Shown here: positions 19,269 to 40,400 of the stretch, piece by piece | How positions within the stretch are numbered: the first letter of the stretch is position 1 | Layout of the letters: every line of letters begins with the position of its first letter | DNA from: a virus | Lineage: Duplodnaviria; Caudoviricetes | Length of the DNA stretch: 53,628 bases | Virus record (IMG/VR): IMGVR_UViG_3300031974_003381 | Location: 1-53,628 of that record | Strand: one strand, 5' to 3' | Translations under genes and position numbers: made by a program | Notes under the pieces: generated by a model | Seen by the model: only the letters and a program-made list of their open reading frames with translations | The model's database searches: none | What the model was told of the DNA's origin: nothing

Positions 19269-20162
19269 ACATATGAATTCATCCACGTACCGCACAGCTT
19301 TAGAGACTTGCTCGCGGGTAAAACGCGCGAGGAGCATGCCCACAATTTTTTGTATGACGCATATGGCAGCGCTGTGGTCAGTGTTAATGACAACGGCGAG
19401 CCTGCTGAGCGGCTCGTTTCGAGTGTCGGCGATCACTTCGAGAAAAACAAGCGCGGCTGGGTTGCATACGCTGGGCAAAAGTGCAGCCGGTGCGGCGGCG
19501 AAGGCGGGTGGAAAGGCTGGCCTAATTGGGTATGCTACCGTTGTGGCGGGGATGGCAAAGATCCCAAACTGTCACGCACTGCGCTCTACACAGCTGATGC
19601 CGCCGAGAAACTGTGCGCACGTCGCAAGGCCAAAGACAACGCCGAGCGCGCCGCTGAGCGCGCACAGGAGGAGCGTGCAGCTGCAGCCCGCGAGGCACGC
19701 ATCGCTGAGCTTGCCAGTGACGAGCGCTACGTCGCTCTGTGCAACCTCAAAGGTAATTTCGCCGCCGACATCCGCGAGCGGCTCGAAGATGGCAAAAACT
19801 GGGACGATCTCAGTGACAAGCAGGTCGCTGCGGTTGATCGCATGATTGCGAAGGTTCAGGCTGCGGCTGACGCGCAGGCCTCTAGCCAGCACATCGGTGC
19901 ACCACGTGAGCGCTTTGCATTCGAGGCGACCGTTGTTGCCAGCCGGCAGATCGGGCACGAACCGTTCTACCCATACGCACCGCGCTACCTGAGCCGCCTC
20001 GTCACCACCGACGGCAATGTGCTGGTCTGGTTCTCTAACAAGCACCTCGAGCGTTTTGTTGACCAGCAGGTTACCGGCAAGGCGACGGTCAAAAAGCACG
20101 ACAGCTACCGCGACACCGCGCAGACCATCGTGACGCGCCTTAAGGTCGACCAAGATGCTTAA
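19266..20162 (+). CDS. Zn-finger plus putative OB-fold protein
   Basis: CSRCGGEGG...CYRCGGDG zinc knuckles. The C-terminal 'IG...ER...GNVLVW...KATVKKH..YRD..QT..TR' segment looks OB-like. Confidence 0.65.
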   Translation: MTYEFIHVPHSFRDLLAGKTREEHAHNFLYDAYGSAVVSVNDNGEPAERLVSSVGDHFEKNKRGWVAYAGQKCSRCGGEGGWKGWPNWVCYRCGGDGKDPKLSRTALYTADAAEKLCARRKAKDNAERAAERAQEERAAAAREARIAELASDERYVALCNLKGNFAADIRERLEDGKNWDDLSDKQVAAVDRMIAKVQAAADAQASSQHIGAPRERFAFEATVVASRQIGHEPFYPYAPRYLSRLVTTDGNVLVWFSNKHLERFVDQQVTGKATVKKHDSYRDTAQTIVTRLKVDQDA

Positions 20163-20904
20163 GGCGCACCAGCGCATCATCCGTGAGGCGAAAGCCGCTG
20201 AGCCGAGCAATGATTTGTTCGGCCAGTGGTGGCCTGCCAATCCAGACATCAAGGATTGCGAGGTGCGCGCTGTCTCGTATGACACAGCCAAGGCCATCAT
20301 CGAAGAGTATGAGTGGCTCGGCAACATGCCGTCGATCACGCTACATGCCTTTGGCGCTTTTTATGATGGCGCCTGCGCTGGTGTCGTCTGCTACTCCCCA
20401 GAGTATTGCGAAAATCTCGGGCGCTGGGATCGGTTTGGGTACACCGGCAAGATCATTCTGCTGTCTCGCGGAGCCTGCGTGCACTGGGCACACCCGCACA
20501 CTGGCAGCCTGCTGATCCGGCGCAGCATGAAGATGCTGCCAACTAAATACAAGGTCGTCACTGGCATGTCCGACATCAGGGCCGGCGAGATAGGCACGAT
20601 CTATCAGGCTTGCGGTTTCGATTATGTCGGAGCCATGCGTGAGCGCAGCGGACTGATCCCGCGACAGGACACAGTCATTGTGAACGGAGAGCAGTTGGCG
20701 CACCGCACATGCAAGCGCAGGTTCGGAACCGCGTCGGTGACAAAGATCCGCGCTATGGGCCACGTCGTCGACACAACGCCGGACATTGACAAGGCAAGGT
20801 ACTTTGGGTTCCGTGGCACCAAGCGCGAAAAGCGGGAGCTACGCAACGCAATCTTAGAGTATATTCAACCGTATCCAAAAAGAGGAGTAACAAATGGATT
20901 ATAG
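20155..20904 (+). CDS. Mom-like (GNAT-fold) DNA-modification protein
   Basis: AKAIIEEYEWLG, ILLSRG, SLLIRRSMKML and SDIRAGEIGTIYQACGFDYVG match the Mu Mom-family 'D...G..G.IYQA.NF.Y.G' motif. Confidence 0.7.
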   Translation: MLKAHQRIIREAKAAEPSNDLFGQWWPANPDIKDCEVRAVSYDTAKAIIEEYEWLGNMPSITLHAFGAFYDGACAGVVCYSPEYCENLGRWDRFGYTGKIILLSRGACVHWAHPHTGSLLIRRSMKMLPTKYKVVTGMSDIRAGEIGTIYQACGFDYVGAMRERSGLIPRQDTVIVNGEQLAHRTCKRRFGTASVTKIRAMGHVVDTTPDIDKARYFGFRGTKREKRELRNAILEYIQPYPKRGVTNGL

Positions 20905-22436: not shown

Positions 22437-22870
22437 GCGCTGAACGTCACTGTCCTATCGTTGCCGACATTGCTGCTCCACTCACTCCACACACTAAACG
22501 CATCCGACGTACTGTTTCCAGACCACGTGTAGGTCGTGTAGTCATTGCCGCTATCATAAACCACATTGGCCGTGCTGGAGCTAAATGTTTTATTGCTGGT
22601 CACGAACAGGGCTGTGCTAAACGGCGCGGATGCAGACGTGTCAGTTTCGAACCTGATGTAGACATAATATGTCGTCGCGGATTTGATCGTGATGGCCAGC
22701 ACAAAAATATCGTGCAGTGTCTCACCGCCGACGTTCGTGTCATCTATCGAGCCGGCGCTGATATATATCCATCCATACGCGTTGCCGCTCTGTCCAATCG
22801 TTACCGTGCGATCTCCGTAGTCGCTTGCGGCTGTAAGCAAAGCAAATCCGAATGCCTTCAGCATGGTCAT
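22433..22870 (-). CDS. Putative fibre-tip/receptor-binding protein
   Basis: ATG 22870 (ATGA overlap). Aromatic- and Ser/Thr-rich, beta-type sequence. Confidence 0.5.
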   Translation of the reverse strand: MTMLKAFGFALLTAASDYGDRTVTIGQSGNAYGWIYISAGSIDDTNVGGETLHDIFVLAITIKSATTYYVYIRFETDTSASAPFSTALFVTSNKTFSSSTANVVYDSGNDYTTYTWSGNSTSDAFSVWSEWSSNVGNDRTVTFSA

Positions 22871-23367
22871 GTGACAGCAGACCCACCAACCACCGCGCTG
22901 GTCGCGCTGGTAAAATACAGACACGCCATTCCGAAGGGTCCAATCGTGCGCGTGCCAGAGGACGTAGCTGCACCCGCCAGACGCAGCGTGGTCAGGCTTG
23001 ACGTCAGCGACTTCGCTGTCGTGGTGTTGTTGACCAGTATGATCATGTCGCCAGCGCTGAAGACGCTGTTCGGGATCGCAATGTTGCCGGTGATCACGAG
23101 GCTTTTGTTGGCGTCGGCGGCAACCAGTGTGCCGCTAGTCCGTGTGCTTTGATCAACCGGCCCAACGAATGCATTGGCTGTCACTGTGGCTGTCACCGTC
23201 AGCGCACCAGACATCGTGTCCCCAGTATCAACGACATAACTGCCCAGATCGCTGATCTGACTTTCAGTTACAGACAGGCTGGTCTGCAGTGCTGATTTGG
23301 TAATCCTGCGCAGGCCGGCGTCTGCGGATCTCTGTGTCAGCAGAAAATCGGTATCCGCAATAGCCAT
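22867..23367 (-). CDS. Short tail-fibre-like protein
   Basis: TESQISDLG and GDTMSGALT fibre motifs. C-terminal domain paralogous to 23369-24160. Confidence 0.65.
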   Translation of the reverse strand: MAIADTDFLLTQRSADAGLRRITKSALQTSLSVTESQISDLGSYVVDTGDTMSGALTVTATVTANAFVGPVDQSTRTSGTLVAADANKSLVITGNIAIPNSVFSAGDMIILVNNTTTAKSLTSSLTTLRLAGAATSSGTRTIGPFGMACLYFTSATSAVVGGSAVT

Positions 23368-23368
23368 G

Positions 23369-24160
23369 TCACGTCACCGCTCCGCCGCCGACAACGCACT
23401 CTGTGGCGCTTCGGAAATAGATAAGGGCCAAGCCATAGCTCGCAACAGTGCGGTTGCCATCGGATGCTGTAGTGCCGTCGAGATGCATGAGCGAAATGCC
23501 TGCGGTGATCTGCAGATTGCTGGTCGTGGTATTGTAGACCAGTATGATGTCGCCTGCGCTGAACACGTTGTTTGGCACCGTGATCGTGCCCGTTGCGTTG
23601 ATCGTGGTGTTGGCGTCGCTCGCGTCCAGCGTACCGCTTGTCTTGCTGTTGTGTTCTGCTGCACCCGAAAAGCTTGCAGCTGTGACCGTTCCTGTCGTCT
23701 CAATGTTGCGCGTGTCAGAAACCAGTGCTGCGTTGTCCAGATTGATAGCGCCTGTAACTGTGACCAGAGCCAGCTTGTCGAACTGCGCCGGCAGCATAAG
23801 GCCTGCGTTGGTTGTTGTGGCAGCTGTCAGTGTCGCGTCCGTGCCCGTGCTACTGACGACCAGCCCATTAGTCGGAGCCGCTGTGTAACTGAGGTTTGTA
23901 ACTGAGGTTCCGCTCTGGCTGATGATCCAGTCCGCTGCACTGGCCGTCCCGCCAGCGATGTAGGTCTGATCATTGAGCGTATCGACATACACCTCGCCGA
24001 TCAGTGAGGGCGTGGTCGATGGCGCGCCGGATCCTGATGTTGCAGTGAGGTATCCGCCGGCAGTTGCCAGACTGGTCTCCAGTGCGCCAAACGTAATGCT
24101 CTTGAGCGAACTGTCTGCGTTCACCTGAACTATAAACAGATCGTTCGTTGTAATGGCCAT
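23369..24160 (-). CDS. Short tail-fibre-like protein
   Basis: SGSGAPSTTP...EVYVDT motif and ATTTNAGLM motif; shares the C-terminal domain with its neighbour. Confidence 0.65.
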   Translation of the reverse strand: MAITTNDLFIVQVNADSSLKSITFGALETSLATAGGYLTATSGSGAPSTTPSLIGEVYVDTLNDQTYIAGGTASAADWIISQSGTSVTNLSYTAAPTNGLVVSSTGTDATLTAATTTNAGLMLPAQFDKLALVTVTGAINLDNAALVSDTRNIETTGTVTAASFSGAAEHNSKTSGTLDASDANTTINATGTITVPNNVFSAGDIILVYNTTTSNLQITAGISLMHLDGTTASDGNRTVASYGLALIYFRSATECVVGGGAVT

Positions 24161-25560: not shown

Positions 25561-25785
25561 CTATCTATATTCTGGCGGTGTTGGCTTTTTCAGGTTCGCG
25601 CGACGCCGGTTCAGGCTGCCGTTCGCGTACAGTGATCCGACAACGGCTGCGATGATCAGGCCAATGTTGGGAATGCCAAACATGCCCATCAGGATCCACA
25701 CACCCATGCCGACCAGAAAACCCAGTCCGGCGCTCTCGATTGCGTCCGCCGAGATCGACGTGACTTTGCTTAGCCAGTTAGCCAT
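25561..25785 (-). CDS. Small 2-TM membrane protein, holin candidate
   Basis: 74 aa, two hydrophobic helices, basic C-tail, located in the lysis cassette. Confidence 0.5.
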   Translation of the reverse strand: MANWLSKVTSISADAIESAGLGFLVGMGVWILMGMFGIPNIGLIIAAVVGSLYANGSLNRRRANLKKPTPPEYR

Positions 25786-26227
25786 TAGGCTGCTCCTCTT
25801 CTAGCGATGGTTCCTGCACATTAACAGCCCAGATGGAACGCAGCTTGTCATGCCAGCGAACAAAGGGATGTTTGCCATGACACAGATCCAGCATTGCCTG
25901 TATGTCGCCGGCGCTGGCCGCTGGCAAAAACAGGTAGCTGCCCTGCGTGCAGGCGGTCGCCACATAACGATCGCCTGCCGCCTTTGGATATTCAGGCGGT
26001 ATGTCTATGCACACTGCGGCAGTCGGAACTGGCAACGCTTGTTTGCAGAACCGATCCGCCTTAAGCCCAGTATCAATCAGCACGCCTGGCACAAACCACA
26101 GAGCCAGCCATGCTGCCACACACAACGCAATGACGCGCGCCATGAACACAGACCAGTCTGGGAGCCAGACAATGTGTGTGCCTATTTCTTCATGCGCTCG
26201 GAGGGCCAGACGCTCTCCGCGACGCAT
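25778..26227 (-). CDS. Membrane-anchored Cys-containing protein
   Basis: One TM segment followed by four Cys; located in the lysis cassette. Confidence 0.5.
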   Translation of the reverse strand: MRRGERLALRAHEEIGTHIVWLPDWSVFMARVIALCVAAWLALWFVPGVLIDTGLKADRFCKQALPVPTAAVCIDIPPEYPKAAGDRYVATACTQGSYLFLPAASAGDIQAMLDLCHGKHPFVRWHDKLRSIWAVNVQEPSLEEEQPNG

Positions 26228-26747: not shown

Positions 26748-27860
26748 CTATATCATAACCTGTGTTGCACTGTCGCGACCGCGCTGCCGTATGGTTTCGC
26801 CACGCCGCTCCATCACCCAGCCAGCAACCCACTGCACTGCTGCGATCACAACGACAATGCCGCCAACCAAAAGCGCCAAGCTTGTGGGGTTGCTGACCAG
26901 CTCCATAAACATGGTAGCGACCACGCCACCGATGCCACCGATCTTCGCCACGGACCCAGCCATTGCGCGCATCATAACGCCGATCGTGATGAGCATCTGC
27001 CCAACGAAGCGCTCCGTTGCTTCCATAGGTTTGGCGCCATTGTTCGGATCGATCTGTGGCGGCAGCTCTGCCATAGGTACTGAGCGCGGGAACTGCTCTT
27101 TAGGCAATGACTTCAATCGATCTGCACCACGCGCCTGCTGATCCAGCGGATAGTTCTTGGCGACGCGCAACACCTCTTCCCACGTTGTCTTGCGGGTCAC
27201 GCGATCCTTCCAGCGCCCAACCTTTTTTCCATCGGCGTTGACGTAGTCAGGATCCCACTCGCTTTCTACCTCCATGACAATGTTGTCTTCGTGGCAGGCA
27301 ATGCTCCAGTCGTATCCTAAAAACAGACAGGCCTCTGCGTAGTGTCTCCGCAACAGCCCGCGCAACGCGCGCTTCCATTCCGACCCCAGTTCCAGCGGCT
27401 GACCGTCAGGGCCCTGCGCCCAGTTTATCGTGCCGTCTGCGTTTTCCGTCGAGCGCACCGTGCCATAGATCCATTCGCCGAAATGCGCGGCCGCATCCGT
27501 CATGCGATTGCTCAGCACATAACTGACTACGGTCGACGTCCTGAACGCGGTAATGCCGACGTTGTAAGCGAAGACAACCAGCGCATCGAACTCATGCTGT
27601 TTCAACTGGGTCGGCACATGCTGACGCACTGCCCGCTCATAGACCTGCAGTGTTCGGCGGTTCAGCGTCGCTGCCTGCTGCCGTGTCAGGCGATCACCCT
27701 GTTTCACCTGAGAGCCATCAGGATACTCCGTGACGCCGTCGCCGATCGTCCATGTACCTACCGCATCCTGATACGCCACAAGGTGCGTCAGGCCGTCTCC
27801 CTGCTTCTCAAACGACGCGTTAAGCGCAAGGCCCCACATGCTGGTTGATGTAACTGTCAC
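26748..27860 (-). CDS. Endolysin, GH24 lysozyme with C-terminal hydrophobic helices
   Basis: FE...AYQDAVGTWTIGDG (E-D-T triad), QHEFDALVVFAYNVG and GLLRRH.AE; C-terminal TM segments. Confidence 0.9.
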   Translation of the reverse strand: MTVTSTSMWGLALNASFEKQGDGLTHLVAYQDAVGTWTIGDGVTEYPDGSQVKQGDRLTRQQAATLNRRTLQVYERAVRQHVPTQLKQHEFDALVVFAYNVGITAFRTSTVVSYVLSNRMTDAAAHFGEWIYGTVRSTENADGTINWAQGPDGQPLELGSEWKRALRGLLRRHYAEACLFLGYDWSIACHEDNIVMEVESEWDPDYVNADGKKVGRWKDRVTRKTTWEEVLRVAKNYPLDQQARGADRLKSLPKEQFPRSVPMAELPPQIDPNNGAKPMEATERFVGQMLITIGVMMRAMAGSVAKIGGIGGVVATMFMELVSNPTSLALLVGGIVVVIAAVQWVAGWVMERRGETIRQRGRDSATQVMI

Positions 27861-29350
27861 CCAAATGCTCCCTCATAAACAACGATAGCGGCCGCCTCTG
27901 GCTGTGTCAGATCGTGCGCGTGGACCGTCAGCAATCCATTTGCATCAATGTTAAACACCAGCTGCAGCTCTGCCTCTTGCTCCCCCAAGCCCTCTGGCAA
28001 TTCGAACGTGTACGCTTGTATCAATTTGTTGTCGGCAGCGCGCGGCTTGTCGCCTTGGTATACGCCAATCGCAAGACAGGACTGCGCTTCCTTGACGTTT
28101 GTTATCGTGGCCTCAGCGCGGAACCCAAACGCTGTGCCCTTCGACACGACCTGATGTATGTTGCCGCCAGCAGTCTCGATCCCGATCGACATGGGCAGGA
28201 TGTCTGCCTCCATAATCGACGCAATCCTTTCGTCCAGCGCGGCGCCTTTGATCGCCGCACCGATTGCCACGATCTCGTCTGGGTTGATGTCAGCCCTAGG
28301 CTTTTTGTTGAAGAACGCCTGCACTGCCTCGCGGATCATGGGCACACGCGTCATTCCGCCGACCAGTATGATGGCGTCAATCTGGGCCGCGCTTCGCTTA
28401 GCTTCAACCATTGCCAGCTTCGTGCTTTTCAGACAGGTCATCACAAGGTGCTCGACCAGCGCTTCATATGCGTCGCGCGACAGCGTTTCCTTAATGTGGA
28501 CTGGTGCCTGTCCCTCTTCGGCATTGACGTAGGCGAACGCCAGCTCGACGTCTGCCTCGTTCTTTGTCGTCAGTGTGATCTTGGTACGTTCAGATGATCG
28601 CATCAATCGCAGAAACCGATACGCATCTGCCGATAGATCGACGCCTGTCTGCTCTTTGTGCTGATCAACCAGCCAGCGCGCAATCTCTTCATCAAAGTTC
28701 AGGCCGCCCAGTCTCGTGTCGCCGTTGGTCGCTAGGTGCTGATGGAAGCCTTTGCCAATCTCCATGATGGACACGTCGAACGTACCGCCGCCCAGATCGA
28801 ACACTGCAACAGTGCTGAACTTGTCATGGTCCAGCCCGTACGCAATCGCGGCAGCCGTCGGTTCACCAAGCAGGTGCACCTCTTTGAACCCTGCCAATTC
28901 GCCCGCCTTCATAGTTGCGCGCTTAGCTTCTTCATCGAAGTAGCTCGGGTGCGTAATGACTGCGCGATCCAGCGTCTCGCCAATCTCTTTCTCAGCTGCT
29001 TCCTTCAGCTTCTCTAGGACCAGACCAGACAGCTCAGCTGGATGCCACGTCTTGTCTGGACCGCGCAAAGCAGCAAAGCCCAGATCGCCTTTGACAACCT
29101 GTGGCCCCATGTCGATATCATCATTGTAGCGCACACCCATCAGGCGTTTGTAGTTGGTGAATGTGTGCTCAAGATTACGAGCCGCCTGCGCTATCGCCTC
29201 ATCACCAATGAACAGGTTGTCGCCAAGGAATGCGACGGCCGACGGCATCGTGGTTTTGCCAGACGGCAGCGTGATCACCTTCGTGATATCGCCGTGGTGA
29301 AACGCAATCGCGCTGTTGCTGGTACCCAAATCAATGCCGCATGTGAGCAT
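27857..29350 (-). CDS. dnaK: Hsp70/DnaK-family chaperone lacking the alpha-helical lid
   Basis: GIDLGTSNS, EPTAAAIAYG, VFDLGGGTFDVSI, ILVGGMTRVP, NPDEIVAIGAA, YQGD..RAADNK and FNIDANGLL. Ends at 497 aa. Confidence 0.92.
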   Translation of the reverse strand: MLTCGIDLGTSNSAIAFHHGDITKVITLPSGKTTMPSAVAFLGDNLFIGDEAIAQAARNLEHTFTNYKRLMGVRYNDDIDMGPQVVKGDLGFAALRGPDKTWHPAELSGLVLEKLKEAAEKEIGETLDRAVITHPSYFDEEAKRATMKAGELAGFKEVHLLGEPTAAAIAYGLDHDKFSTVAVFDLGGGTFDVSIMEIGKGFHQHLATNGDTRLGGLNFDEEIARWLVDQHKEQTGVDLSADAYRFLRLMRSSERTKITLTTKNEADVELAFAYVNAEEGQAPVHIKETLSRDAYEALVEHLVMTCLKSTKLAMVEAKRSAAQIDAIILVGGMTRVPMIREAVQAFFNKKPRADINPDEIVAIGAAIKGAALDERIASIMEADILPMSIGIETAGGNIHQVVSKGTAFGFRAEATITNVKEAQSCLAIGVYQGDKPRAADNKLIQAYTFELPEGLGEQEAELQLVFNIDANGLLTVHAHDLTQPEAAAIVVYEGAFG

Positions 29351-30462
29351 TACGCATCCCCCTCAAGATGATCGTCGACCCGCAGGTGATGCGCGCGCTT
29401 CGCTTTCTTGTAATGGGCATTGGCGTTGCCGCCTTTTTGCCCACGTATTTGTGCAGCGGTCAGGTCCGGCAGCGTCTCCTCTTGCGACGCTTCCTCCTCT
29501 GGTGCATCTGCTGCAGGTTCTTCGGCGGGCGGGGCGGCGGTGTTGACTTTGCTGACATGCTCTTGCTCCTCCACTTCTAGCTCGCGCAATTTGCCTACAA
29601 AGAACCGGTGCAGATCGTAGTACGCACCAAGGCCAAATGCCGCCATCGCTTCAATGAACAGCGCGAACATGAACAGCACAGCGATGCTGATATTGTTGGC
29701 AGACCAAGGTAGGATCTTACCGAGCACATCAAAGATTGCGTAGAACACGCTGACCTCTGTTGTCTCCTCGGCATTCTTCACCTCTACCTGTTCGGTCTGC
29801 GTCAGGATCACGCGCTTCTCATCGCGCTTCTCCTCAATCAATTCGCCAAACCGCGCACGAATGCCGGCCATGTCAGAACGGATGCCTGCAATCTGTTCGT
29901 TGTCTGCTCGGCTAATGCCAGGCACGCCATCGTCAGCAATCAGATCAATCTGCTGCTGGCTGAGAGCCAGTGCTGCATCCCGCTCTTCTGCCAGCGCTGC
30001 AATCTCTTCATCGATCAACGCCAGCTGCTCGTCATTGTTCTGTACTGTCTGCTCAGTGGTGACCTGCGAAACTTCGGCGTTCTTCGTCTGGGCGCTGTGA
30101 CCGCCGGCAAAAAACGACATGGCAGGGATAAGGCACAGGAGGATTGAGCCCACCCACAGAGCGCGCACTGTCGCCCTAGCGCCTCTGATTTCTGCCATGC
30201 CGCGAACCCACTGCAGCGCAACGCCTGCAGAGATCGCCACTGTTCTGATCACCAACGCGATGAGCATGAACACTGGAATGAGGTAGGCCTCTGGTGCCCA
30301 CGCCATGAAGAAGATTGCGTCTAGTATGTAGACCGCAACGATCGCGCCGATGCACGCAAATAGGAACGCCTGATCAGCGAACCGAATGATCGCAGTCGGA
30401 TCCGCGTCAAAACGTTCCTGCACATTTTCGTTTCGCGCGCGTGTAAACGGGTTCAGGTTCAT
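29350..30462 (-). CDS. Multi-pass membrane protein with a long coiled coil
   Basis: Three N-terminal TMs, a ~130-aa coiled coil, a further TM, then an acidic/basic tail (DUF4407-like topology). Confidence 0.65.
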   Translation of the reverse strand: MNLNPFTRARNENVQERFDADPTAIIRFADQAFLFACIGAIVAVYILDAIFFMAWAPEAYLIPVFMLIALVIRTVAISAGVALQWVRGMAEIRGARATVRALWVGSILLCLIPAMSFFAGGHSAQTKNAEVSQVTTEQTVQNNDEQLALIDEEIAALAEERDAALALSQQQIDLIADDGVPGISRADNEQIAGIRSDMAGIRARFGELIEEKRDEKRVILTQTEQVEVKNAEETTEVSVFYAIFDVLGKILPWSANNISIAVLFMFALFIEAMAAFGLGAYYDLHRFFVGKLRELEVEEQEHVSKVNTAAPPAEEPAADAPEEEASQEETLPDLTAAQIRGQKGGNANAHYKKAKRAHHLRVDDHLEGDA

Positions 30463-30472
30463 GGCGTCATCC

Positions 30473-30913
30473 TCAAAATAAACTCTGCATTACGTTGGCA
30501 ACGTACCTGCTCTGACTGGCGTTGGCTCCGATGATCACAGCCAGAATGGATGCGATGGACCAGAACAGCGACCACGCTTTCGATCGGCTTGCCGCTTGCC
30601 GCGCTTCCTGCTCGTGCTTCAAGTCTTCGATCGCCTTGTCGATTTTGATCTGCGCCTCGCGTATGATCAGGTCGTATTGATCCTGCAGCTGATTGGTCAA
30701 CGCAGCATCCTGATCCTTGGATTGCTCGCGCACCTGCATAGCCAAACACTTGATCCGTTCCTTGATGTCTTTCATCATGGCGTCCAGATGCGTATCGTTC
30801 AACGCGCTGACGCGACGCTCCAGTTCGGCCAAATGTTTGTAGCCAGGCGCAGTCTCGAACGCCATTTCCAGTCTGGCTATTCGCGTCTCTATCGACAGGT
30901 CTGACATGCTCAC
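30473..30913 (-). CDS. Coiled-coil protein with a C-terminal TM (holin/XhlA-like topology)
   Basis: 146 aa: heptad-rich region followed by WSLFWSIASILAVIIG. Confidence 0.55.
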   Translation of the reverse strand: MSMSDLSIETRIARLEMAFETAPGYKHLAELERRVSALNDTHLDAMMKDIKERIKCLAMQVREQSKDQDAALTNQLQDQYDLIIREAQIKIDKAIEDLKHEQEARQAASRSKAWSLFWSIASILAVIIGANASQSRYVANVMQSLF

Positions 30914-31456: not shown

Positions 31457-34400
31457 TCAGCCAGGCTCGCCTTCTTCGAAGTCATAGCCTTGCATCATGG
31501 ACTGGCCGAAGGTTGGCAGGTCTTCGATCTCACCCGTCATGGTCGCAAGGCCTGTCTCAACAACCTTCTCGGCTTGGAAGATTGGGAAGCCACGCGCTGC
31601 TGCAAAGCCTCGACCCAATGCGTAAAGCAGATCAGACATTGCGTCGTCATCCATTTCCTCTCCGGTTAACAAACGATTGACCGCTTGGGATGCGAACGAG
31701 CCAGTTTCCGCAACAGCATCACCGAGCACACCTATTGGTGCCAAACCGGCCGGTCCTGAATATCCATATGGGCTCAGCGACTGCGCAAGCAAATTGGTGG
31801 TTGGGTTCATACCTAGGAAATATTTTGCCATCTCGTTGCTGAAGTGGGATGGCCATTCCTCTTCATCCTCTGGCAACTGACCACGCATGTACTGGATCCA
31901 CATGTAATACATGGTTGGCAATACCGAAAGCAGCATCAGGTCGTTGAGGTTCGCCATAAAACCATTGAACGAAAGGTGATTGCGGTTAGCCATCTTTGCG
32001 CGACCAAGATTGTAGATCGTAAACATCACCGACAGGAAGTTCGTCAAAAGCTTTTTGACAAGGCCTCCGCGCTGCGTGCCGGCCAAAGCCTGTATCTGAC
32101 CAGAGCCTTGGCTGTCAGTGACCGCCTGATCGGCGATCGCTGAGGCATCCACATCATCAAAACCACGGCTGCGCGCGAGATCAAAGGCACCGTTCCATGT
32201 CGGCAAATCTACCATGTAGAATTGCAGCTGCTGCATGGGCACCAGAGAATACTCTGCGATCTTGTCTACAACGTTGGACCTGCCCTGCATCCGCGCCAGT
32301 GCATCATTGACCTCGCGGTTCATCGTGTCCATGCGTTGCTGCATATACAGCGATTGGCGCGCGGCTGTTTCGGCAGTTTCTTTAAGCTTCGCGCCATTGC
32401 CCGAGTACGTCATAAGCATACCCTTCAGGGTTTGCCTCTTGCCAATCAGGGACATTGTCTGGAACAAACCAGCTGGCTGCAAAAAGATTGTGCCGAGGTT
32501 TGCGCCCAGCGCCATAATCGACATGTTGTTTCGCAGGCCACTCAGCGCGCGCTCTTCCCATGTCGTCAGGATTTGTGGCCCCTCTTTGGTTTCGCGAATG
32601 TGGGAAACAATTTGATCGTATGTTTTCCTGCCATACTTTTCGACGATAGCTCGCCGCACGTCTTCGTTTGTCAAGATCCGCGCAACGTCCAGCAACGCAC
32701 GCGTCAATCCGATCTCGGAGGAAACCTGATCAACGTGGCGCACAACAACTGACGTGAAGTCCAGCAGCACTGGCAACGTGACAACGTCCGCACGTTCCTT
32801 CTGAGCAGACACTTTCGTTTTGGCCGTAATAGATCCACCGGTTTTGCGCGCCTCTTGCATTGCTGCGTCATTCAACTGGCGCTGCTGTGTTGCAGTGGAC
32901 TGGCGTCCGTCATAGACCAGAGGGAAATACCCACCAGCTAAAATGATCTGCCTGCCATTCTCATCTTTGAATGGCGTAGCCAAAGGCACGGGCGGTTCCT
33001 TCTTCAGCGGCAATCCATGTATGTCTCTGTGCGCAGCATCCATGTCGCCGAAATAGCTTTCCAAGATGTCCCACATGTCCTGCACGAACATCACGTCGTC
33101 CACTGTCAGCAGTTCCATGATGCGCTGCAGGTCTTGGGGCTTGATGCCGCGACCATCAGCGAGACGCTGACGACCTTTGGCTGTGCCCGCATTCAGCAAA
33201 ATGCTGATCGCCATTTGTCGCGTGACCTCAGTGTTATTCTCGTCACTCAGGCGAAACCCTATCTTGTCTTTGCCCAGCTGATTGATGCCAGACACGCCAA
33301 ACCTTTCCTCAAGCGCATCCACTATGCGCTGCATCATCTCCTGCCGGATCTGTTCCTTGCGGGATATCGCTTCGTTCAACGGGCGCACTATGAAGTTCCA
33401 CACTACGCCGCCAGACTTAGCGCCATCCATCTCAAACGCGATCGATTGCAGAGAACGCTGCCCCGCTAAGATTTCTCGAACACCATCTACAAATCTGCCC
33501 CTCAGCGGATCAGAGCTGGGCGCCGCGACTGAACCCTTCTTCCTGCGAACCTGCGTTGCAACATCTGCCGCCGCTCTGGCAATGGTGCGGTTTTTGCGAT
33601 CGGTCAGCAGGCGATCCTTCGTTTTGGCAAGGCTGTGCACAAGGCTTGCCTGTGCTGCCACCTCTTCCATTTCGGCCAGCGTCATCGTGCGATACGACCT
33701 GCCACGCATGGAAGCAGCCATGTCGCGCAAGCGTTGCTCACGCTCCATCTCCGCCATCATTGCAATGGGATCTCCGCCATCTTCCACGCCGTCAAGCTTC
33801 ATATCGGATAGCTTCAACGGATCCTTGTCCAACAGTTGACGATCAACCCAGCTAAGAAAACGCTCGATCGATATGGACTGGCGATTGGTCTCAGGCTTCA
33901 GGCGATAGCGGTCGATGATGCCATTGAGGTGTTCGACATACTGGTTGCCTGCGCGCACGATACGCTTGAACCGCTCGCCCTTCGTGTAGCTGATAACCTC
34001 TTTGCGCTTACTCTCGAAACGCTGCAGCGCTTTCTCGCCCTTGCGATACATCTCTCGCAGCAACTGCGCCCGCGCTTTCAGGCGTTGCGCCTGTTCGATC
34101 TCACCCTCATTGATGGCGGCCGCCACTTTGTTTTCCAACCGATCGGCCTCAGCGCGCCACTGTCTCCAGCCAGCCAGCTGGTTGTATGTCATTTTCTCCA
34201 GCGCTTCGTCGGCAGCTACACGCGCCAGCCTGAGCGCCGGCTGTACGCCCATAGCCTCACTCAGAGCGATCATTTCTATTTCATGCTGCCGTTCACGGAC
34301 CTCGTTGTTGGCGAGGTCTGCAGCCATATCGGCCAGCTTCTCTTTGTCATACTGCGTTTCAGGATACTCATTTTCCATGACGGAATTGGTCATGTTGGCA

Positions 34401-37400
34401 ATCGCTTTGCCACGATCACCCCCGACCCCATTGAACGCTTCCAGCATTTCCGTTCCGTTAGCGAAACCAAACATGTGCGCTGCTTGTTCGACGCTGGTTT
34501 CCGGCAACGTTTCGTCATTCATCCGTAGCTTGATCTTGCGCGGCAGCGCCTTCACCAAATGCTTAGGGTAGTTTTTCAGATCCTGTCTGCTCAACCGCAT
34601 TGGTTTCAGCCCATCGGGCGGATCGATCGGCCCCCAGTTTTTGTACTTCGGTCCGTTCTGGAAGAATACGTTTTTGGCTTGCAGCTTTTTGATCGCTGTG
34701 ATGCGGTCGGTCTTGCCGCCGTACTTGACCACCTGCAGACCAGCATCCCGAAGCATCTTCAATATGTCTGCCTCTGTGTCATCAGGAACGACCGCAGCGA
34801 CGAACTCCTGCAGTGCCACGGGTCGCGTTGCCTTTGCCTCAAAGTACTCCGTTGGCATACGGAAAAACATTTCAGTGATCTGCCGCTTCAAGTCCATCAA
34901 TGCTGTATTACGATCGCTTGCATACACTCCGTCCAGATTGCCCAGCAAAAGTTGATTAATCCAGTCGTCGGGATCCCGATTGTTCAATACCTCTTCGGGT
35001 AAGATGCGTTTGATCTCACGCTCGAAGAGGCCCACGGCCTGATCGGCAAATGATTTCAGCGAGTGGAACTGACGAGCGCTGACAATTTGCTGGCGCGCTT
35101 TGGCGACTGCCTCTTTGCCCGCGAGCTTTTCCGCGACCAACCCGCGTACGTAACCAGCCCCGCCGAACGCACCTTCTCCACCACGGATGCCGTGCAAGAA
35201 CATCGCTTCGACAACGTTCTCCAAAGTGTACTCTTTAGTCACTGGATTTCCGTCTGCGTCGAAACCGACGAGTACCTCCGAGCGCCGTTCTATTGAGGCA
35301 AACTGCGTGTCGACATAATCAAGATAGCTGTTGAGCAATTCGCCAGCTTTCTTCTTGCGCGTGCCATGCGCCAACGCAACACGCACACGATCTTGCACCC
35401 GCATGTGCGCAATGTTCCCATGATTTTTGACGTGCTGGTAATATGCAGCCAGCGTGATGAACCGCCGATAGTCAGCGTTCTGCATGAGCTGCTCACTATC
35501 GAGGCCGGTCTCCTCCGCATACGCCTCTCTCAGCTTTTTGCTAAGTGCCACATCAAAATACGCGTTCTTCCATGCCTCCATAAAAAATATATTGTCATCA
35601 ATCTGCATGATCGACGTACGGTCTTTCGCCATTTCCCAAATGTTATCGATTGCTACGATGGGCCGCCTAGCCTCAATAACTGCTTGACCTTGATCGGCGA
35701 TGTCGAATGCCTTACGCGCCAGCAACTTGATGTTACTATCAAAGCCTTTGTCCATCTCCGGCAGACGAAACTCAGCAGCATCTTCGCTGATCAACCCTTC
35801 CCTGTAACCCCACAACAAAAATTCCATACTGGACTGATCATCAAGTCCTGTTTTGCCATACCGCTTGATAGCCGACTCGTTGTTATACGTTGTAGGTTTG
35901 CTTACGAAGCGTGTGACATGTTCAGGTGCACGCTGATAGCGATCAGGAAGTTCAGCCCTAACTCTTTCGTAAAGCGCTTCAACAGACTTTTCTTCGATGA
36001 CTATTTGTTCCTTGGGCTGGCGCGGCGAATACACGTCCGCATTAAAGACGTGTATGTCCTTGTCATCCAACAACTCAGGCGACGCTATCAATGAGATATC
36101 ACCGAAGCTTTCAAACTCTCCAATATCGGTACGCGACACGGCGATGGATGGCCCTGCAAATCCGCCCAGCTCATCTTGAAAACGTAGTGCTCTGTCTCGC
36201 GTGTTGTGCACAACATACAGATTGCGCTCACGTGTTGGCTCCAGCACGCCAGCCATTTGCTGCTCATTGGCGAGATTGCTGACGCTGAGATATACGCTTT
36301 CCATGCCCAGCTTTTCTTGCAACCGCTCGACAGTCAGTTGTGTTATGGGCCTGTGGCCAAATGGGTCCGGCGGCATTGGGATACCCGCAGCCATCGCCTC
36401 AACCATAATCGCCGCCGACTGCAATGCATTAAGCGGCGTAGTTGTGTGCCAAGGAATGTCAGGGAAACCGTCCGGCACGAGCACAGCCAGACGATCATCG
36501 TCTGTTGTATCCAGAACGGACTTTAGCTCACGACCTGACTGCAATACCGGACGAAGTTTTCTCGGTGCCCGATGGCCGCCGTCTGACCAGACCTGTACCG
36601 ATCCATCTTCTTCGACAAGAACCCAGCTAGCTGAATAGTCAAATTTCTGGTGCGGCGAGATAATCATCATGCGCGTCGCTTCGAAGATTTGTTCCGGCGT
36701 CTTTTTCGCCTTGTACATCTTCATCGCTTGCGCCATCGCCTTGTCTTCGCGCGTGTTGCCTTGGAACAACCATTGGCCAGGTTGCCTGCGTGGCAGGTCT
36801 GCCGTGCCTGCCTCTTTGTTAATGGCTTCAACCTCAGCGTCTGGCAGGACACGAACGACACGCATCTCGCCGCCAATGAGCCACTCACCCTGCATGTTTG
36901 GGTTTGTCTTGTACCGGTAGTGCCCACCCTCTGGGATGCGATCGGTAATGTCGGCTGTGCTGGCAATGATTTCGCCGGCCTTATTGCGACGCGCTCCAGC
37001 GTTTGCCTGAGACTGCCAGTCAACATCGTCGCCCAGTTCAACCTCTGCCCACACCTGATCTGGCCGGCGCGTGTCTGGCCCCTTGCTCTGGCTGCTAAGC
37101 TTAGCGCCAATGTGTGGCGCCGCAGGGACATCGCCGGCGTGCCAGCCAGGCCGGTACTTCAGCGCGCCAATGCTGGACTTCACGCGGCCCTGCGCGTCCA
37201 TCACCCCAGACGTCGCGCCGATCCACCGCCCCATAGGCACAGGTGTTTTCGACTGCACGAACAATGGGAACAGTTCGCCTGGCCGCTTCGGATCCAGCCG
37301 GAATAGCTTGTAGGCTTTCACCTTCTTTTTTGGTTCCTGCACGAAGGGATATTCTTCCGCCTGCTCCTGCGCAGTCTCCTCAATGAACGGCTGACGCCCT

Positions 37401-40400
37401 TCGGTCCACGCCCATGACGGCAGCAAACCTATTTTTTGTTCGGCGAAGATCGTGTCTTCTAAACTCGCCGTTCTGTTCTGCTCTCCATACGGACCGTAGT
37501 TCAGCCAGCTGTTTTGTCCGCGCGTCTCCGAAGTCATGGCAGCTACTGCGCCACCAAAATACAACTGGACGTGCGCTTGCCACGCGTTCTCTTCACCACG
37601 CGCCCTAAACCCAGAACCTTCAAGACCGTGCCCCATTGCGTCGTGCACAGCGCGGAAGATGTCGTTGTATGTCACTGGCTGCTGAACGCCTGCCTGATCC
37701 GGCCACGTCAGCCCGCTGTCTTCCAGCATTGGGTTGTCGGCAATGTCGCTGTCCGTTATGCCTTCTGTTCCGTAGCCATCCGACGTAGCAAAGACTGCCA
37801 TCGTTTTGGTTGCGCGCAGGTCGCGCATCGCGTTCCACGGATTACCTTCATAAGGATCTGAGTGTCTGTCGAAAAACGTAAACGAATATCCTGCTGCGAC
37901 AAGAGCGTCGTATTGGGCTTTGGTCTGCTCAATCAACGCTTGATATGCCGCAGCAGTTTCTGGATCCTGCGGATCGTGTTTCATTTCTTCGTAGGCTTGC
38001 GCTATCCGCTGCGCAAGGTCGACGTCTACTCCGGCGAACGCGGCTTGTCTGCCGACGGGGATACCGTTTGCTCGGGCGTATTCGTCTGCGACTGCGACGA
38101 TCTCTGGGATCGGGCCCGCGAAGTTTGGGACTGCTGGCGCACCTTCAAGGCGCGCAAGGCGAGGTATCCGTGGCTGTCTTCTTCCGTCTCCGGTGCGTTC
38201 GGGTCCCACTCCGTCTTGGCCGAGGATGTTTTCAGTCTCTGGTCCGGCTGCATCGGTAGGGTTTGCCCAATCGATCGGCGCAGCAGTTCCTCCGCTTTTG
38301 ATTGCTTCGTCATATTCATTTCTCTCTTCTTCTGTCAGCGCGTCATGCCACGGACGCGATGTGCCAAACTCTGTACCACGCTTGCGCGCTTTTGACGATA
38401 GCTTGCTGAGCGCCTTGCGCGTAGGAGACTTGCTGTCGGCCATCACACTGTGCGGGAGTAGGTATGCGGTTGGGGCGTCAGCGTCTGTTACAGGCTGCAA
38501 CATTTCTACCAAGATGGCGGGCTTACCGTCCTCCATAACGGTGTACCGAAATCCGTAGTCGTACGATCCATACTTGCCCTGACGAACATACGCGCCGACG
38601 TATGGCGCGGCCGCTCCCTGCGCTTCGCGAAACAATCCTTCGACCGACGCGTGGCCCACTTCCTGATCGCTAGCGGCAAGCCAGCTGTCCCAATGGTAAC
38701 GACCTAGCGATCCTTCCATGCCCATGTTTGCGTAGGCTTGTTCGACAATGGGCTGGAGTGCACGCTCCATTGCTTCATAAAAGAACAGACCGATGTGGCC
38801 TTTGCCAAACTCTTGCAGCCCTGTGCCCGTCAGGGCTTTGCCGTTTTCGTCTTTAAGATTGTCATACAGGTTTTCATCACCAAAACGACCATCGTTAAAC
38901 TGGTTCCGTATCTGCACCCTATCAAGTATGAGAACATCTGTTCGTCCGACCAACAACATCATGAACGAGAACACTTTGTTGTCGATGCCGGAGCCCGCGC
39001 CCAATCGCAGAAACTCACGCCGAATGATGTATGAAGGAACGCCACTAGCCAGCATGTCATGAATGATTTGAACGTGCGTCTTACCGTTTTCCTTTTGCAT
39101 CATGACAGGCAGGAAGAAATCTCCGAACGCGTTTAGGTTCAAGATTGCACTACGTCCGCCGCTGCCTTTAGGAATTGCTTGCGATGCCCAGTCCTTAAAA
39201 CGCACAGCCAGATCGTCCGACCAACCGCGTTCAAGCCCCTCCGTCAAAATAGCATTGAATTCTGGATCACTGATCGTGTCCAGAAACGCACTCTCCTGAA
39301 AGTACGGCGTTATCCGTCGGGACAGCATGGACCAATAGAAAGCCTTCAGGGTGATGATTGGATCGACCTGTCCAGATGCGTACAGCTCGCCAAACTCTTT
39401 TGCCGTTTGCAGCCCTGCCTCAGCATCGCGACGCATACCTTCCGACAGCGTACCCAACTCGCGCTCGACAGCAGCTGATCCTTCTTTAACAATGGCCAGT
39501 GTTCGCCACGGTGGCATGGGTACACGCGTGTTGGAAAAGGCGTCGTTGCCATACGCCACCCATTCTTCCAGACTGTTTAATGGCGTGCGGTGGCGAACCA
39601 GCAAAGCATCTAACGCTTCCGATTGCTTTGCGGCATTGGTCGCGTTCGTCGTCCCCGTAATCAACGAGGAGCCTTTCACCATCTTTGGCGCGGTGGCGCT
39701 ATTGTTCTCCACTGTAAACCGCTCAACCACTCCAGCCACAACGGTTTTTGCGCCGGCCTTTGTCTTGCGCGGCGGCTCCCGATCCGCCAGCCGTTCGACT
39801 GGGCTCTTGTCCTGTTGGCCCAAGATGTTTGCAGTGGCAGGATCATTGAACGCGGCGAAGATGGACCGGATATTTTCCGGCTCGAACACAATGACAATGT
39901 CTCCATCCGGTCCTATAAACCCACCGCGTTGCTTACGTCCTGCGAAACCCATGTCGCGGGCCATTTCGCTTTTGACCTTTTCGTACGTGTCATACGAAAA
40001 CTCTCCCGCGTCAGCCAGTGCTTGGACACGGTCTGCAAAATCTTTAGCCATTGCAGGTTCCGACAACATGGCATCAAGCTCTTCGTTGTCGATAATCGCA
40101 CCGCGTACATACAGCGGGTAAAGCGTGCCTCTACGGCCCGCATAATTTTGAGCATATGCGGACACATCACTCATGTAGACGCCACGCCCCATTGCACCAT
40201 GTCGGCTTGGCCGGAACTCCGTGATCGTACTGACCGGAGACCCGTGATAGTAAACGGTTGCCGTGTCGAAGCCCATCTGATCAGCGCGTTCGATTGCAGC
40301 GTTCCGCAGAACCGTCTGCGTGTGCGTCAGCTCAACCTTGCCATCTTCGTCAAGGGTAACGCCATTCTGTTTGACGATGTTGGCGACAGGATCGCCAGCC

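Follow-up and report, generated by a model that had tools for sequence, protein, structure and literature searches.

A lid-less phage Hsp70 encoded with a C-terminally anchored endolysin suggests chaperone-assisted host lysis

Description

The window analysed here, 53,628 nucleotides of a tailed virus (Duplodnaviria; Caudoviricetes; positions 1 to 53,628 of IMG/VR record IMGVR_UViG_3300031974_003381), encodes a lid-less Hsp70 between a 4-TM membrane protein and an endolysin with a C-terminal transmembrane (TM) anchor, and the analysis suggests a so far undescribed form of chaperone-assisted host lysis. Tentatively, we favor a reading in which the Hsp70 would be a J-independent chaperone dedicated to this endolysin. 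The three genes (hereafter the trio) and their neighbors are listed in Table 1. The source of the Hsp70 gene is a marine phage.

Table 1. Features of the Hsp70 module and flanking genes, in order of transcription (positions in the window)
Feature	Position	Strand	Characteristics
146-aa coiled-coil protein, tail-anchored type	30473..30913	-	C-terminal hydrophobic segment 115-133 (hydropathy)
4-TM membrane protein, 370 aa, DUF4407-related	29350..30462	-	Read from hydropathy and AF2 model
Lid-less Hsp70, 497 aa	27857..29350	-	NBD, polar linker, beta-sandwich SBD; short conserved hydrophobic-x-Y/F-x-G tail
Endolysin, 370 aa, GH24 lysozyme	26748..27860	-	Directly downstream of Hsp70
i-spanin-like protein, 89 aa	26469..26738	-	N-terminal hydrophobic stretch, then charged helix
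o-spanin-like lipoprotein candidate, 81 aa	26227..26472	-	Signal-like N-terminus, LTTGC
149-aa protein	25778..26227	-	One N-terminal TM; no family match
Holin-like protein, 74 aa	25561..25785	-	TM 15-33 and 34-52, basic C-terminal tail; no family match

A preliminary description, made from the sequence alone, had called the Hsp70 a DnaK homolog with intact ATPase motifs and no helical lid, and both points hold. Its match to Pfam HSP70 (PF00012, E 4e-133) spans positions 2-496 of the 599-position profile and so ends ahead of the lid; PDB searches align the protein to DnaK residues 5-496, and in a 32-row alignment the lid-less relatives (n=22) have just 0-6 residues each opposite DnaK 508-605. 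The ATPase residues D8, G10, T11, K70, E171, D194 and G196-T199 (E. coli numbering) are all present and are kept in 22/22 family members. The substitutions pointed out earlier are seen in the alignment: the linker reads SIMEAD where DnaK has DVLLLD, and the substrate loops read TNVKEAQ vs TAEDNQ and ELPEGLGEQEA vs GIPPAPRG. Across the family the VLLL linker is lost, the substrate pocket (I401, F426, V436, I438) keeps its hydrophobic character, Q433 is kept in 20/22 members, and both arch residues (M404, A429) as well as the latch residue R467 are lost. An AF2 model (pLDDT 92.5, pTM 0.90) superposes on ATP-state DnaK (4b9q, 5nro, 7kzu) with TM 0.92-0.93 and adopts a docked, ATP-type state, possibly learned by the method from DnaK structures. 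The retained ATPase and pocket residues and the confident docked model argue for a protein competent as a chaperone.

Of the J-domain contacts listed in the cited portion of PMC8215388, R167 is kept in 1/22 family members, Q378 in 2/22, L391 in 6/22 and D477 in at most 1/22, a family-wide loss that fits J-protein-free working. As first described, searches of the window (77% complete by CheckV) turned up neither a J domain (PF00226) nor GrpE (PF01025); four phage records, including one that is 100% complete, likewise yielded no J domain. A decoy role toward host J proteins, GrpE or sigma-32 control, or toward defense sensors, goes back to the preliminary suggestion of a viral Hsp70 soaking up host partners and is very improbable: no result points there, loss of the four contact residues would make this Hsp70 a poor J-protein decoy, PADLOC returned no match, and the close association with membrane lysis genes would stay unexplained.

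In a tree with DnaK, HscA and HscC, the 22 lid-less sequences form a monophyletic clade (SH-aLRT 100) outside all three, with members met only on contigs of at most 62 kb. Judged from this tree, the clade is monophyletic, old and of single origin, and the one-off capture that had been considered was not borne out. Any Hsp70 match was found in 46/50,697 phage records (all <60% identity, best rows near 38%), consistent with the expected rarity of Hsp70 in small phages; these are mostly jumbo phages or small unannotated or draft records, the latter in our reading host fragments. Among NCBIfam models DnaK scores highest (466 bits), and the phage protein is about 40% identical to alphaproteobacterial DnaK and shares its NBD with full catalytic residues, its beta-sandwich and its ATP-state fold (TM 0.93). 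Unlike DnaK, it is without the helical lid, the VLLL linker and the J-contact residues, scores under the equivalog cut-offs (466 vs 648; 461 vs 822) and falls in a separate, long-stemmed clade. In domain content it is like the lid-truncated laboratory constructs of M. genitalium DnaK (5obu/5obv), BiP (7a4u/7a4v) and mortalin (9blu), all among the fold matches of the model. Those were engineered from canonical Hsp70s whose linkers and J interfaces are normal, whereas the phage truncation is natural and ancient and goes together with changes in the linker and the interface.

The overlap of the Hsp70 gene with both neighbors, noted previously, is read directly from the DNA: TAATG is common to the 4-TM stop and the Hsp70 start, GTGA to the Hsp70 stop and the GTG start of the lysozyme gene, and a Shine-Dalgarno-like GAGGGGGA or GAGGGAG lies ahead of each overlapping start. 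The order 4-TM protein, Hsp70, GH24 lysozyme was found in 3/3 distinct phage contexts fetched (the window, L095/L096, which are one phage, and L100), with both junctions overlapping by 1-4 nt in each. These represent three of the four main Hsp70 sub-clades, with roughly 19 further clusters of the lid-less family lying outside the synteny comparison. Identity to the window in L096 and L100 is 40% and 38% for the Hsp70, 33% and 31% for the TM protein, and 40% and 36% for the lysozyme. A fourth case is suggested only by the equal length (31,725 bp) of the contigs that carry P0002 and the TM homologue P0290.

Against one strain variant (L002), pN/pS is 0.067 for the Hsp70 (223 codons), 0.018 for the TM protein (371 codons) and 0.03 for the 146-aa coiled-coil protein. 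A 2,875-nt contig of a variant covers the Hsp70 and TM genes with 79 substitutions and no gap, and a lone RNA-library contig covers 26200-26735 only. The comparison with L002 shows strong purifying selection, and relaxed selection, raised as a possible objection, was not borne out. The repurposed Hsp70 proposed in the preliminary description thus stands as a selected, correctly assembled gene tied to lysis genes, and its part as a decoy for host co-chaperones is not supported, given the lost J contacts. Absent from that description are the membrane anchor at the endolysin C-terminus, the place of the 4-TM hairpin protein in the conserved unit, and the spanin-like and holin-like genes farther downstream.

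In the window, the module's neighbors within the late structural operon are a 3,921-aa polyvalent protein (ART-PolyVal and PBECR5 domains) on one side and tail-fiber genes on the other. The Hsp70 could therefore be a general folding or assembly chaperone for late products (tail fibers, large internal proteins, capsid parts), its adjacency to lysis genes being incidental; jumbo phages do carry their own Hsp60, Hsp10, Hsp20 and J proteins (PMC7824862, cited in part). Fifteen late proteins of the window were searched by tblastn against L096 and G002, a complete trio phage record (59,671 bp, terminal repeats). The giant polyvalent protein occurs in two trio phages. In G002 only the TM protein, Hsp70 and lysozyme are matched, none of the other 12 late proteins is, and the giant protein is absent. 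A trio shared without any other tested late protein is a portable module, and from the gene context the Hsp70 is predicted to be a constant member of this mobile set of lysis genes. Since the Hsp70 moves with the TM protein and lysozyme, and both junctions overlap in 3/3 phages, we consider a general late-gene chaperone unlikely.

The endolysin begins with a GH24 domain (1-136), which leads through a conserved middle domain and a proline-rich linker to an amphipathic stretch rich in Gly and Ala, a C-terminal TM and a basic tail. Its layout is identical in the orthologues P0284 (40% identity) and P0286 (36%). It matches Phage_lysozyme (PF00959, E 9e-27) and the phrog_7 endolysin; PDB profile matches to 6et6, P22 2anv and R21 3hde are confined to residues 1-136, and hydropathy gives one strong C-terminal TM at residues 328-346. 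Topologies of this protein and the 4-TM protein are our own reading from hydropathy and the positive-inside rule. The lysozyme also matches the NCBIfam models of two alphaproteobacterial proteins, the GTA endolysin BgtA (E 8e-22) and SpmX (E 2e-9), but scores far under their cut-offs (78 vs 315; 37 vs 700). SpmX likewise joins a muramidase domain through a linker to C-terminal TM helices, but it acts in cell polarity and is not a lysis enzyme.

Downstream of the lysozyme, 3/3 trio phages have i-spanin-like, lipobox-bearing and small holin-like ORFs. The i-spanin-like protein, whose TM is read from sequence and falls below threshold in a 19-residue hydropathy window, has counterparts in L096 (104 aa; weak tblastn match, E 5e-4) and L100 (126 aa), with a W..RD..[IV]R motif past the TM in common. 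The o-spanin-like start overlaps the i-spanin-like stop, and the lipobox counterparts are LATAC in L096 and LLTSC in L100, the latter when an internal Met is taken as the start in an ORF overlapping the i-spanin gene out of frame. Small basic-tailed TM proteins occur at the position equivalent to the 74-aa protein (L096 13616-13843, L100 12963-13151), and we infer from its features that the 74-aa protein would act as a holin.

Upstream, the 4-TM protein (AF2 pLDDT 83.5) has a hairpin of two long helices (~85 A), the tip of which, DDGVPGI, is invariant. It also has a disordered stretch of acidic residues and a basic helix at the C-terminus. Its orthologues lie immediately upstream of the Hsp70 in L096 and L100. 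Its family comprises 71 clusters, of which 20 match PF14362; the window protein itself scores 20.3 bits, under the 31.3-bit cut-off. In L100 the trio is preceded by a 132-aa protein (TM 106-124) with the layout of the 146-aa window protein, the two having no similarity by tblastn.

With virion and ejection genes next to it in a long late operon, the module may have a virion-related role: the lysozyme and the 4-TM hairpin protein, possibly along with the Hsp70, would be packaged or act at infection, for wall cutting and as a channel, with the Hsp70 keeping hydrophobic proteins soluble before packaging. The neighbors are of ejection type (the ART-PolyVal/PBECR5 protein here, and a phrog_4287 'DNA ejection protein' match upstream in G002), and the hairpin resembles many helical hairpins, the IpaB translocator (Z 11.6) and a chain of the T7 tail complex (Z 11.1) among them, both below the noise bar of about Z 13 for helical models. 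Yet spanin-like and holin-like genes directly follow the trio in every phage compared, and the lysozyme is the sole muralytic match among the 40 G002 ORFs scanned (~125 aa or more). Lysis cassettes, moreover, move by themselves from phage to unrelated phage, which structural modules seldom do. An entry-stage module, including the solubilizing role of the Hsp70, is thus distinctly improbable.

In the reading that we favor, the Hsp70 would act as a cytoplasmic, ATP-driven chaperone requiring no J protein. The endolysin anchor is last out of the ribosome, so the enzyme part of about 300 residues would be handled post-translationally; the Hsp70 would hold and target this product of the overlapping downstream gene, keep it unfolded or inactive, and then deliver it to the membrane, probably jointly with the upstream 4-TM protein. 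The Hsp70 might instead be a lysis timer that keeps its client (the anchored endolysin, or the 4-TM, holin-like or tail-anchored proteins) inactive as long as ATP is abundant and releases it once cellular energy collapses. Linkage and lysis context fit a timer equally well, and because lid, arch and latch are lost, fast, nucleotide-dependent on/off rates should follow, an expectation based on lid-truncated DnaK. Nothing separates a timer from delivery, but holin-like genes able to time lysis are already present, and we hold a timer to be quite unlikely.

The favored reading has precedents. To our knowledge, Gp1 of mycobacteriophage Ms6 is not an ATPase; its sequence class is unrelated to Hsp70, and its client is without a C-terminal anchor. 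Like the Hsp70, Gp1 is encoded directly upstream of the endolysin gene (lysA); it binds the endolysin and aids its export by holin-independent membrane crossing, and is described in the cited portion of PMC3111421 only as a small chaperone-like protein. DnaK is required for insertion of tail-anchored proteins, and HscC of E. coli, an atypical, specialized Hsp70 that presumably serves membrane proteins at the plasma membrane, works with tail-anchored J proteins, DjlB and DjlC, encoded by adjacent genes (PMC8215388, cited in part). Unlike the phage protein, HscC retains its lid (550-580 aa), works via J proteins and falls outside the lid-less clade, its own long branch (1.66) making its position unsure.

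The endolysin resembles Enc34 ORF39, M4Lys and AP1 LysAP, which have an N-terminal catalytic and a C-terminal TM domain, are encoded between holin-like and spanin genes, and reach the wall by an unexplained route (PMC8943055, PMC7143992, PMC8879335, cited in part). It differs in that the catalytic domain of Enc34 ORF39 and M4Lys is of PHA02564 type, not GH24, and the cited parts of PMC8943055 and PMC7143992, which state this route to be unknown, make no mention of an Hsp70 or a 4-TM hairpin partner. If true, the proposed role of the Hsp70 would bear on how C-terminally anchored endolysins reach the wall.

The Hsp70 protein and its clade

The Hsp70 gene encodes a protein that matches PF00012 in Pfam at 445 bits (cut-off 20.6, E 4e-133), the match covering positions 2-496 of the 599-position profile, and its alignment to solved DnaK structures spans DnaK residues 5-496, which bears out the lid-less, 497-aa DnaK homolog of the preliminary description. 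In NCBIfam it scores below both DnaK equivalogs (466 vs a cut-off of 648 for NF001413 and 461 vs 822 for TIGR02350) and below both HscA models (364 vs 620 for NF003520 and 361 vs 708 for TIGR01991), and no HscC-specific model is among its matches. The ATPase motifs are intact, as first described: in E. coli DnaK numbering, D8, G10, T11, K70, E171, D194 and G196-T199 are all retained by the window protein and by 22/22 members of a lid-less clade, and D201 is kept in 21/22. Substrate pocket positions 401, 426, 436 and 438 are hydrophobic across the clade in the alignment with E. coli DnaK, Q433 is kept in 20/22 members, and an Arg at 385 (21/22) and a Gly at 415 (22/22) are family-specific invariants. 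An AF2 model built from a 21-row alignment (pLDDT 92.5, pTM 0.90) has visible beta-sandwich strands and superposes on ATP-state, domain-docked DnaK (7kzu, 5nro, 4b9q) with TM scores of 0.92-0.93 and an rmsd of 2.4 A, a likeness to the docked state that could be due in part to the method's training.

Opposite DnaK residues 508-605, the lid region, all 22 lid-less Hsp70s have 0-6 residues, and R467, the lid latch, is missing. The linker reads I-M-E-A in the window protein where DnaK has VLLL, and across the clade this site holds one hydrophobic residue followed by mostly polar ones; the linker and substrate-loop substitutions quoted in the preliminary description are present in the alignment. 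Arch residues M404 and A429 vary within the clade. The J-domain contact residues of DnaK are listed in the excerpted text of a review (PMC8215388); the contact sites R167, Q378, L391 and D477 are occupied in the window protein by H, K, E and N, respectively, and the DnaK residues occur in 1/22, 2/22, 6/22 and at most 1/22 clade members. A J domain was found in none of the four phage records carrying the Hsp70, one of which is a complete genome with terminal repeats, and neither a J domain nor GrpE was found in the window (77% complete), again as first described. The loss of J contacts across the clade conflicts with the earlier idea that the protein is a decoy for host co-chaperones or defence sensors, which we consider highly implausible.

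A word-indexed search with the Hsp70 returned one near relative (P0002, 498 aa, 57% identity), followed by alphaproteobacterial DnaKs at approximately 40%. An exhaustive HMMER search of 1.84 billion representatives with a two-row profile placed many proteins of 481-509 aa above or among the DnaKs. When 27 of the best 150 matches were compared, 19 aligned end to end with the window Hsp70 and stopped after the beta-sandwich; the linkers of the other eight are of the LLLD type, and these proteins resemble fragments of DnaK, or Hsp70s of other kinds. Three metagenomic proteins labelled DnaK (P0003-P0005, 759-773 aa) were set aside as relatives, as they outscored DnaK only because of internal duplications. 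These duplications, of roughly 130-230 residues, inflate scores in Hsp70 searches and are probably assembly artefacts.

Set in a tree against DnaK, HscA and HscC, as the preliminary description had proposed, the 22 lid-less rows form one clade of their own (SH-aLRT 100, stem 0.47) with long internal branches, outside the 10-row DnaK clade (support 97); the single E. coli HscC row does not join the lid-less rows in this tree, but its branch is long and its placement unsure. The tree holds 42 rows (22 lid-less, 10 DnaK, 8 others, E. coli HscA and HscC) and was obtained by a quick IQ-TREE search rooted on HscA. Lid-less clusters were seen only on contigs of at most 62 kb and never on chromosome-sized ones. 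The clade appears to be a fourth type beside DnaK, HscA and HscC, one that is natural, ancient, lid-less and phage-carried, and apparently J-independent.

Conserved gene order

The Hsp70 gene overlaps both flanking genes, as originally noted and as read directly in the window, through TAATG at the upstream junction and GTGA at the downstream one, and a Shine-Dalgarno-like run precedes each start. Synteny, which the preliminary description had put forward as a check, is conserved in the three contexts read (the window, L096 and L100), each with the order 4-TM protein, Hsp70, lysozyme. Locus L096 belongs, with L095, to one phage (47 kb, 84% complete) and runs from the 3' part of a giant ART-PolyVal protein through small genes to a trio of 446 aa (4-TM protein), 495 aa (Hsp70, P0127) and 430 aa (lysozyme with a C-terminal TM), after which come i-spanin-like, lipoprotein and small TM genes. 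Locus L100, in phage record G002 (59,671 bp, terminal repeats, 100% complete), carries a trio of 411 aa (4-TM protein), 490 aa (Hsp70) and 404 aa (lysozyme with a C-terminal TM); next come an i-spanin-like gene, a lipoprotein ORF that overlaps it, and a TM protein of 62 aa. Both trio junctions overlap by 4 nt in L096 and in L100.

The portal and terminase of G002 differ from those of the window and it has no giant protein; when 15 window late proteins were searched against it, only the three trio proteins matched, so the trio is a module common to otherwise unrelated phages. Of the four main sub-clades in the Hsp70 tree, the three phages represent three. The presence of P0002 and of the TM homologue P0290 on contigs of one length, 31,725 bp, is the sole hint of a fourth co-occurrence.

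Coordinates of the trio and of other features in the window and in G002
Feature	Record	Coordinates	Strand
4-TM hairpin protein	window	29350-30462	-
Lid-less Hsp70, 497 aa	window	27857-29350	-
GH24 endolysin, C-terminally anchored	window	26748-27860	-
Polyvalent protein, 3,921 aa	window	31457-43222	-
Tail-fibre-like protein, 1,158 aa	window	46136-49612	-
LPD22-domain protein, 686 aa	window	49980-52040	-
Adjacent ORFs of 166 aa and 263 aa	window	22867-24160	-
Plus-strand early block	window	15160-16466 and 20155-20904	+
o-spanin-like ORF overlapping i-spanin-like gene	G002 (L100)	12469-12958	

Endolysin, spanin-like and holin-like genes

Endolysin residues 1-136 are a GH24 lysozyme (PF00959, phrog_7; PDB matches 6et6, P22 2anv and R21 3hde), and the catalytic Glu (E18) is invariant in 3/3 orthologues. 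By hydropathy the sole strong TM lies at residues 328-346, preceded by a long proline-rich linker and followed in all three phages by a basic cluster; a SAR-type N-terminal signal anchor was not found, as the endolysin has no N-terminal hydrophobic segment. Tethering of the enzyme on the periplasmic face would fit this arrangement. The lysozyme domain matches the Bartonella GTA endolysin BgtA and the Caulobacter polarity factor SpmX in NCBIfam, both far below cut-off, which hints at an alphaproteobacterial host range. P0299, a relative in the TM family, has the source label Acidiphilium sp.

Genes recognised by their features as i-spanin-like and o-spanin-like occur in all three phages, as do holin-like small proteins with 1-2 TM and basic tails, in each case without a family match; the window o-spanin-like lipobox (LTTGC) is non-canonical. 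The o-spanin-like ORF of G002 (lipobox LLTSC) overlaps its i-spanin-like gene out of frame, while the i- and o-spanin-like genes of the window and L096 overlap at their ends only. The lysozyme is the only muralytic match among 40 G002 ORFs scanned. Identification of the neighbourhood as lysis genes is supported by this match, by the spanin- and holin-like genes in 3/3 phages and by the portability of the module.

The 4-TM hairpin protein

The protein encoded upstream of the Hsp70 has four hydrophobic segments by hydropathy. Its family comprises 71 clusters, and for 20 of them there is a precomputed match to PF14362 (DUF4407); the window protein scores 20.3 bits against this model (cut-off 31.3). 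Three papers in the open-access full-text and bioRxiv collections mention DUF4407, and by title and abstract none is about it. In its model (pLDDT 83.5) a four-helix membrane bundle carries a projecting hairpin of two long helices, approximately 85 A in length, with an invariant DDGVPGI at the tip, and beyond the hairpin the chain is acidic and disordered for a stretch and then forms a basic C-terminal helix. The positive-inside rule would put the hairpin in the periplasm and both ends in the cytoplasm. Foldseek gave no match to the fold at E <=0.001, and the best VIA-align Z scores (10-11.6) were to assorted helical hairpins and below the helical noise bar.

Selection and expression

Selection, another of the checks first proposed, was assessed as pN/pS against L002, a strain-variant fragment 96.3% identical to the window. 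Five of the six non-synonymous differences in the Hsp70, in three codons, fall within the last five codons at the L002 contig end. Another variant, a 2,875-nt contig over 27610-30484, has 79 substitutions and no gap. RNA-library coverage consists of one contig over 26200-26735 only, with the Hsp70 gene outside it.

Identity of the trio proteins to those of the window, and pN/pS of window genes relative to L002
Gene	Identity, L096	Identity, L100	Codons	Synonymous / non-synonymous	pN/pS
Hsp70	40%	38%	223	28 / 6	0.067
4-TM protein	33%	31%	371	35 / 2	0.018
Lysozyme	40%	36%			
146-aa gene			131		0.03

Occurrence in sequence collections

Scans of IMG/VR with the Hsp70 as a single sequence or 2-row alignment, and with the single TM protein, returned no match; with the 21-row Hsp70 alignment the scan was swamped, all 80 of the 80 loci kept being full-length DnaKs with VLLLD linkers. 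The same 21-row profile was also swamped by DnaK in a word-index search, with three lid-less proteins among the matches listed. A family-specific degenerate DNA pattern for the lid-less Hsp70 had 0 matches, and a scan of JGI metagenomes gave only one 2.2-kb fragment, from the same phage. In tblastn against the phage collection the TM protein had no match, and the matches of P0130, a member of the lid-less Hsp70 clade, were all below 60% identity (best rows 35-38%) and mostly in records already matched by the window Hsp70; blastn of the region against phages gave one dnaK-like match of 103 bases. The Protein Atlas yielded unnamed, mostly viral clusters only.

No GTDB genome was found with the TM-protein patterns, no Hsp70 lay near any of 22 genomic (GTDB lysozyme patterns) and 11 viral generic lysozyme loci, and the TM-family profile matched 0/401 sampled alphaproteobacterial genomes (positive control, 3/3 phage records); no prophage copy of the trio thus turned up in the genomes covered.

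The phage record and its other genes

The window is a linear record of 53,628 bp with a completeness of 77% (CheckV). It encodes a T7-type connector (phrog_332, approximately 25% identity to Pelagibacter podophage connectors), a large terminase, a protease and a major head protein, and its late operon is one long minus-strand run from about 53.6 kb down to 21.5 kb. DNA near-identical to the window is present in seawater, marine, estuary and aquatic-virome runs from several studies; 17 runs hold at least 0.39 of the sampled window words, and 5 of these may be the source of the record. The native host is probably a marine bacterium. Between 24500 and 32000 the count of promoter and terminator sites is no higher than in shuffled sequence.

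In the 3,921-aa polyvalent protein two ART-PolyVal stretches occur together with a PBECR5 nuclease-like domain, and phrog_9880 matches its C-terminal 1,000 aa (E 3e-142); an ART-PolyVal relative is located upstream of the trio in L096 and is absent from G002. LPD22, a domain associated with large polyvalent proteins, is present in the 686-aa protein, which also matches phrog_9880; this suggests a second polyvalent-type protein of the same late operon. A Peptidase_S74 intramolecular chaperone domain (E 1.5e-13) forms the end of the 1,158-aa tail-fibre-like protein. The adjacent 166-aa and 263-aa ORFs are alike at both termini (M-A-I start, GG.AVT end), share an NTTT..L motif and look like duplicated fibre or receptor-binding genes. 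Proteins encoded in the plus-strand early block resemble the annealing protein Erf, the exonuclease RecE and the DNA-modification protein Mom. PADLOC found no defence-gene match for the Hsp70, the TM protein, the lysozyme or the 171-aa and 149-aa proteins, and only two marginal matches for the 146-aa protein (LeoC and Cas5b, E approximately 0.004).

Interpretation

Prokaryotic Hsp70 types in the excerpted text of a 2021 review are DnaK, HscA and HscC (PMC8215388). DnaK has a helical lid, a VLLL linker and J contacts, whereas the window Hsp70 is without all three. HscC works with tail-anchored J proteins (PMC8215388, excerpt), and the adjacency of hscC and djlC was observed here; in contrast to HscC, the window Hsp70 has no lid and the window no J gene. 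DnaK has a role in inserting tail-anchored proteins (PMC8215388, excerpt), and Ms6 Gp1 is a precedent for chaperone help to an endolysin (PMC3111421, excerpt); the one feature seen in common between Gp1 and the window Hsp70 is gene position, directly upstream of and overlapping the endolysin gene. From the lysis context and these chaperone precedents we therefore favour, tentatively, a dedicated J-independent chaperone of the C-terminally anchored endolysin, probably acting together with the 4-TM protein; the preliminary description had already raised a dedicated chaperone for lysis. A complex prediction for the Hsp70 and the endolysin scored 0.00 (mark 0.32) without controls and speaks neither for nor against.

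Other roles within the late region may be considered. A chaperone serving late proteins generally is unlikely. The ATP-sensing timer proposed earlier corresponds to a nucleotide-dependent restraint on lysis, which appears quite improbable, and we are very doubtful that the trio is a module acting at entry or in the virion.

Endolysins with a C-terminal TM domain are a recently recognised class whose way to the cell wall is explicitly left unexplained in the excerpted text of PMC8943055. The window endolysin resembles the Enc34/M4Lys type in its N-terminal catalytic and C-terminal TM domains; the catalytic domain of that type is PHA02564 (PMC8943055, excerpt), whereas that of the window is GH24 (PF00959). 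It is conceivable, if doubtful, that the three proteins together form a self-contained device, driven by ATP, that exports or inserts an endolysin with a C-terminal targeting signal. The lid-less Hsp70 would keep the lysozyme-plus-linker part of approximately 300 residues unfolded, and the 4-TM protein, with its long hairpin, would be a dedicated insertase or conduit. The enzyme would end periplasmic, tethered by its C-terminal helix and reaching the wall via the proline-rich linker. This would happen independently of Sec, and either ahead of holin holes or in their absence. If true, such a device would add to DnaK, HscA and HscC a fourth kind of prokaryotic Hsp70 system and would explain by what route C-terminally anchored endolysins get across the membrane.

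No paper on an Hsp70 in a lysis cassette or on a lid-less phage Hsp70 was found among open-access full texts and bioRxiv preprints. The trio comprises three genes in approximately 3.7 kb and is portable between unrelated phages; being small and portable, it is directly testable by expression. The lid-less clade is a natural experiment in Hsp70 function when lid, hydrophobic linker and J protein are absent, and for phage biology it places an ATPase chaperone within the lysis cassette, linked to the class of C-terminally anchored endolysins.
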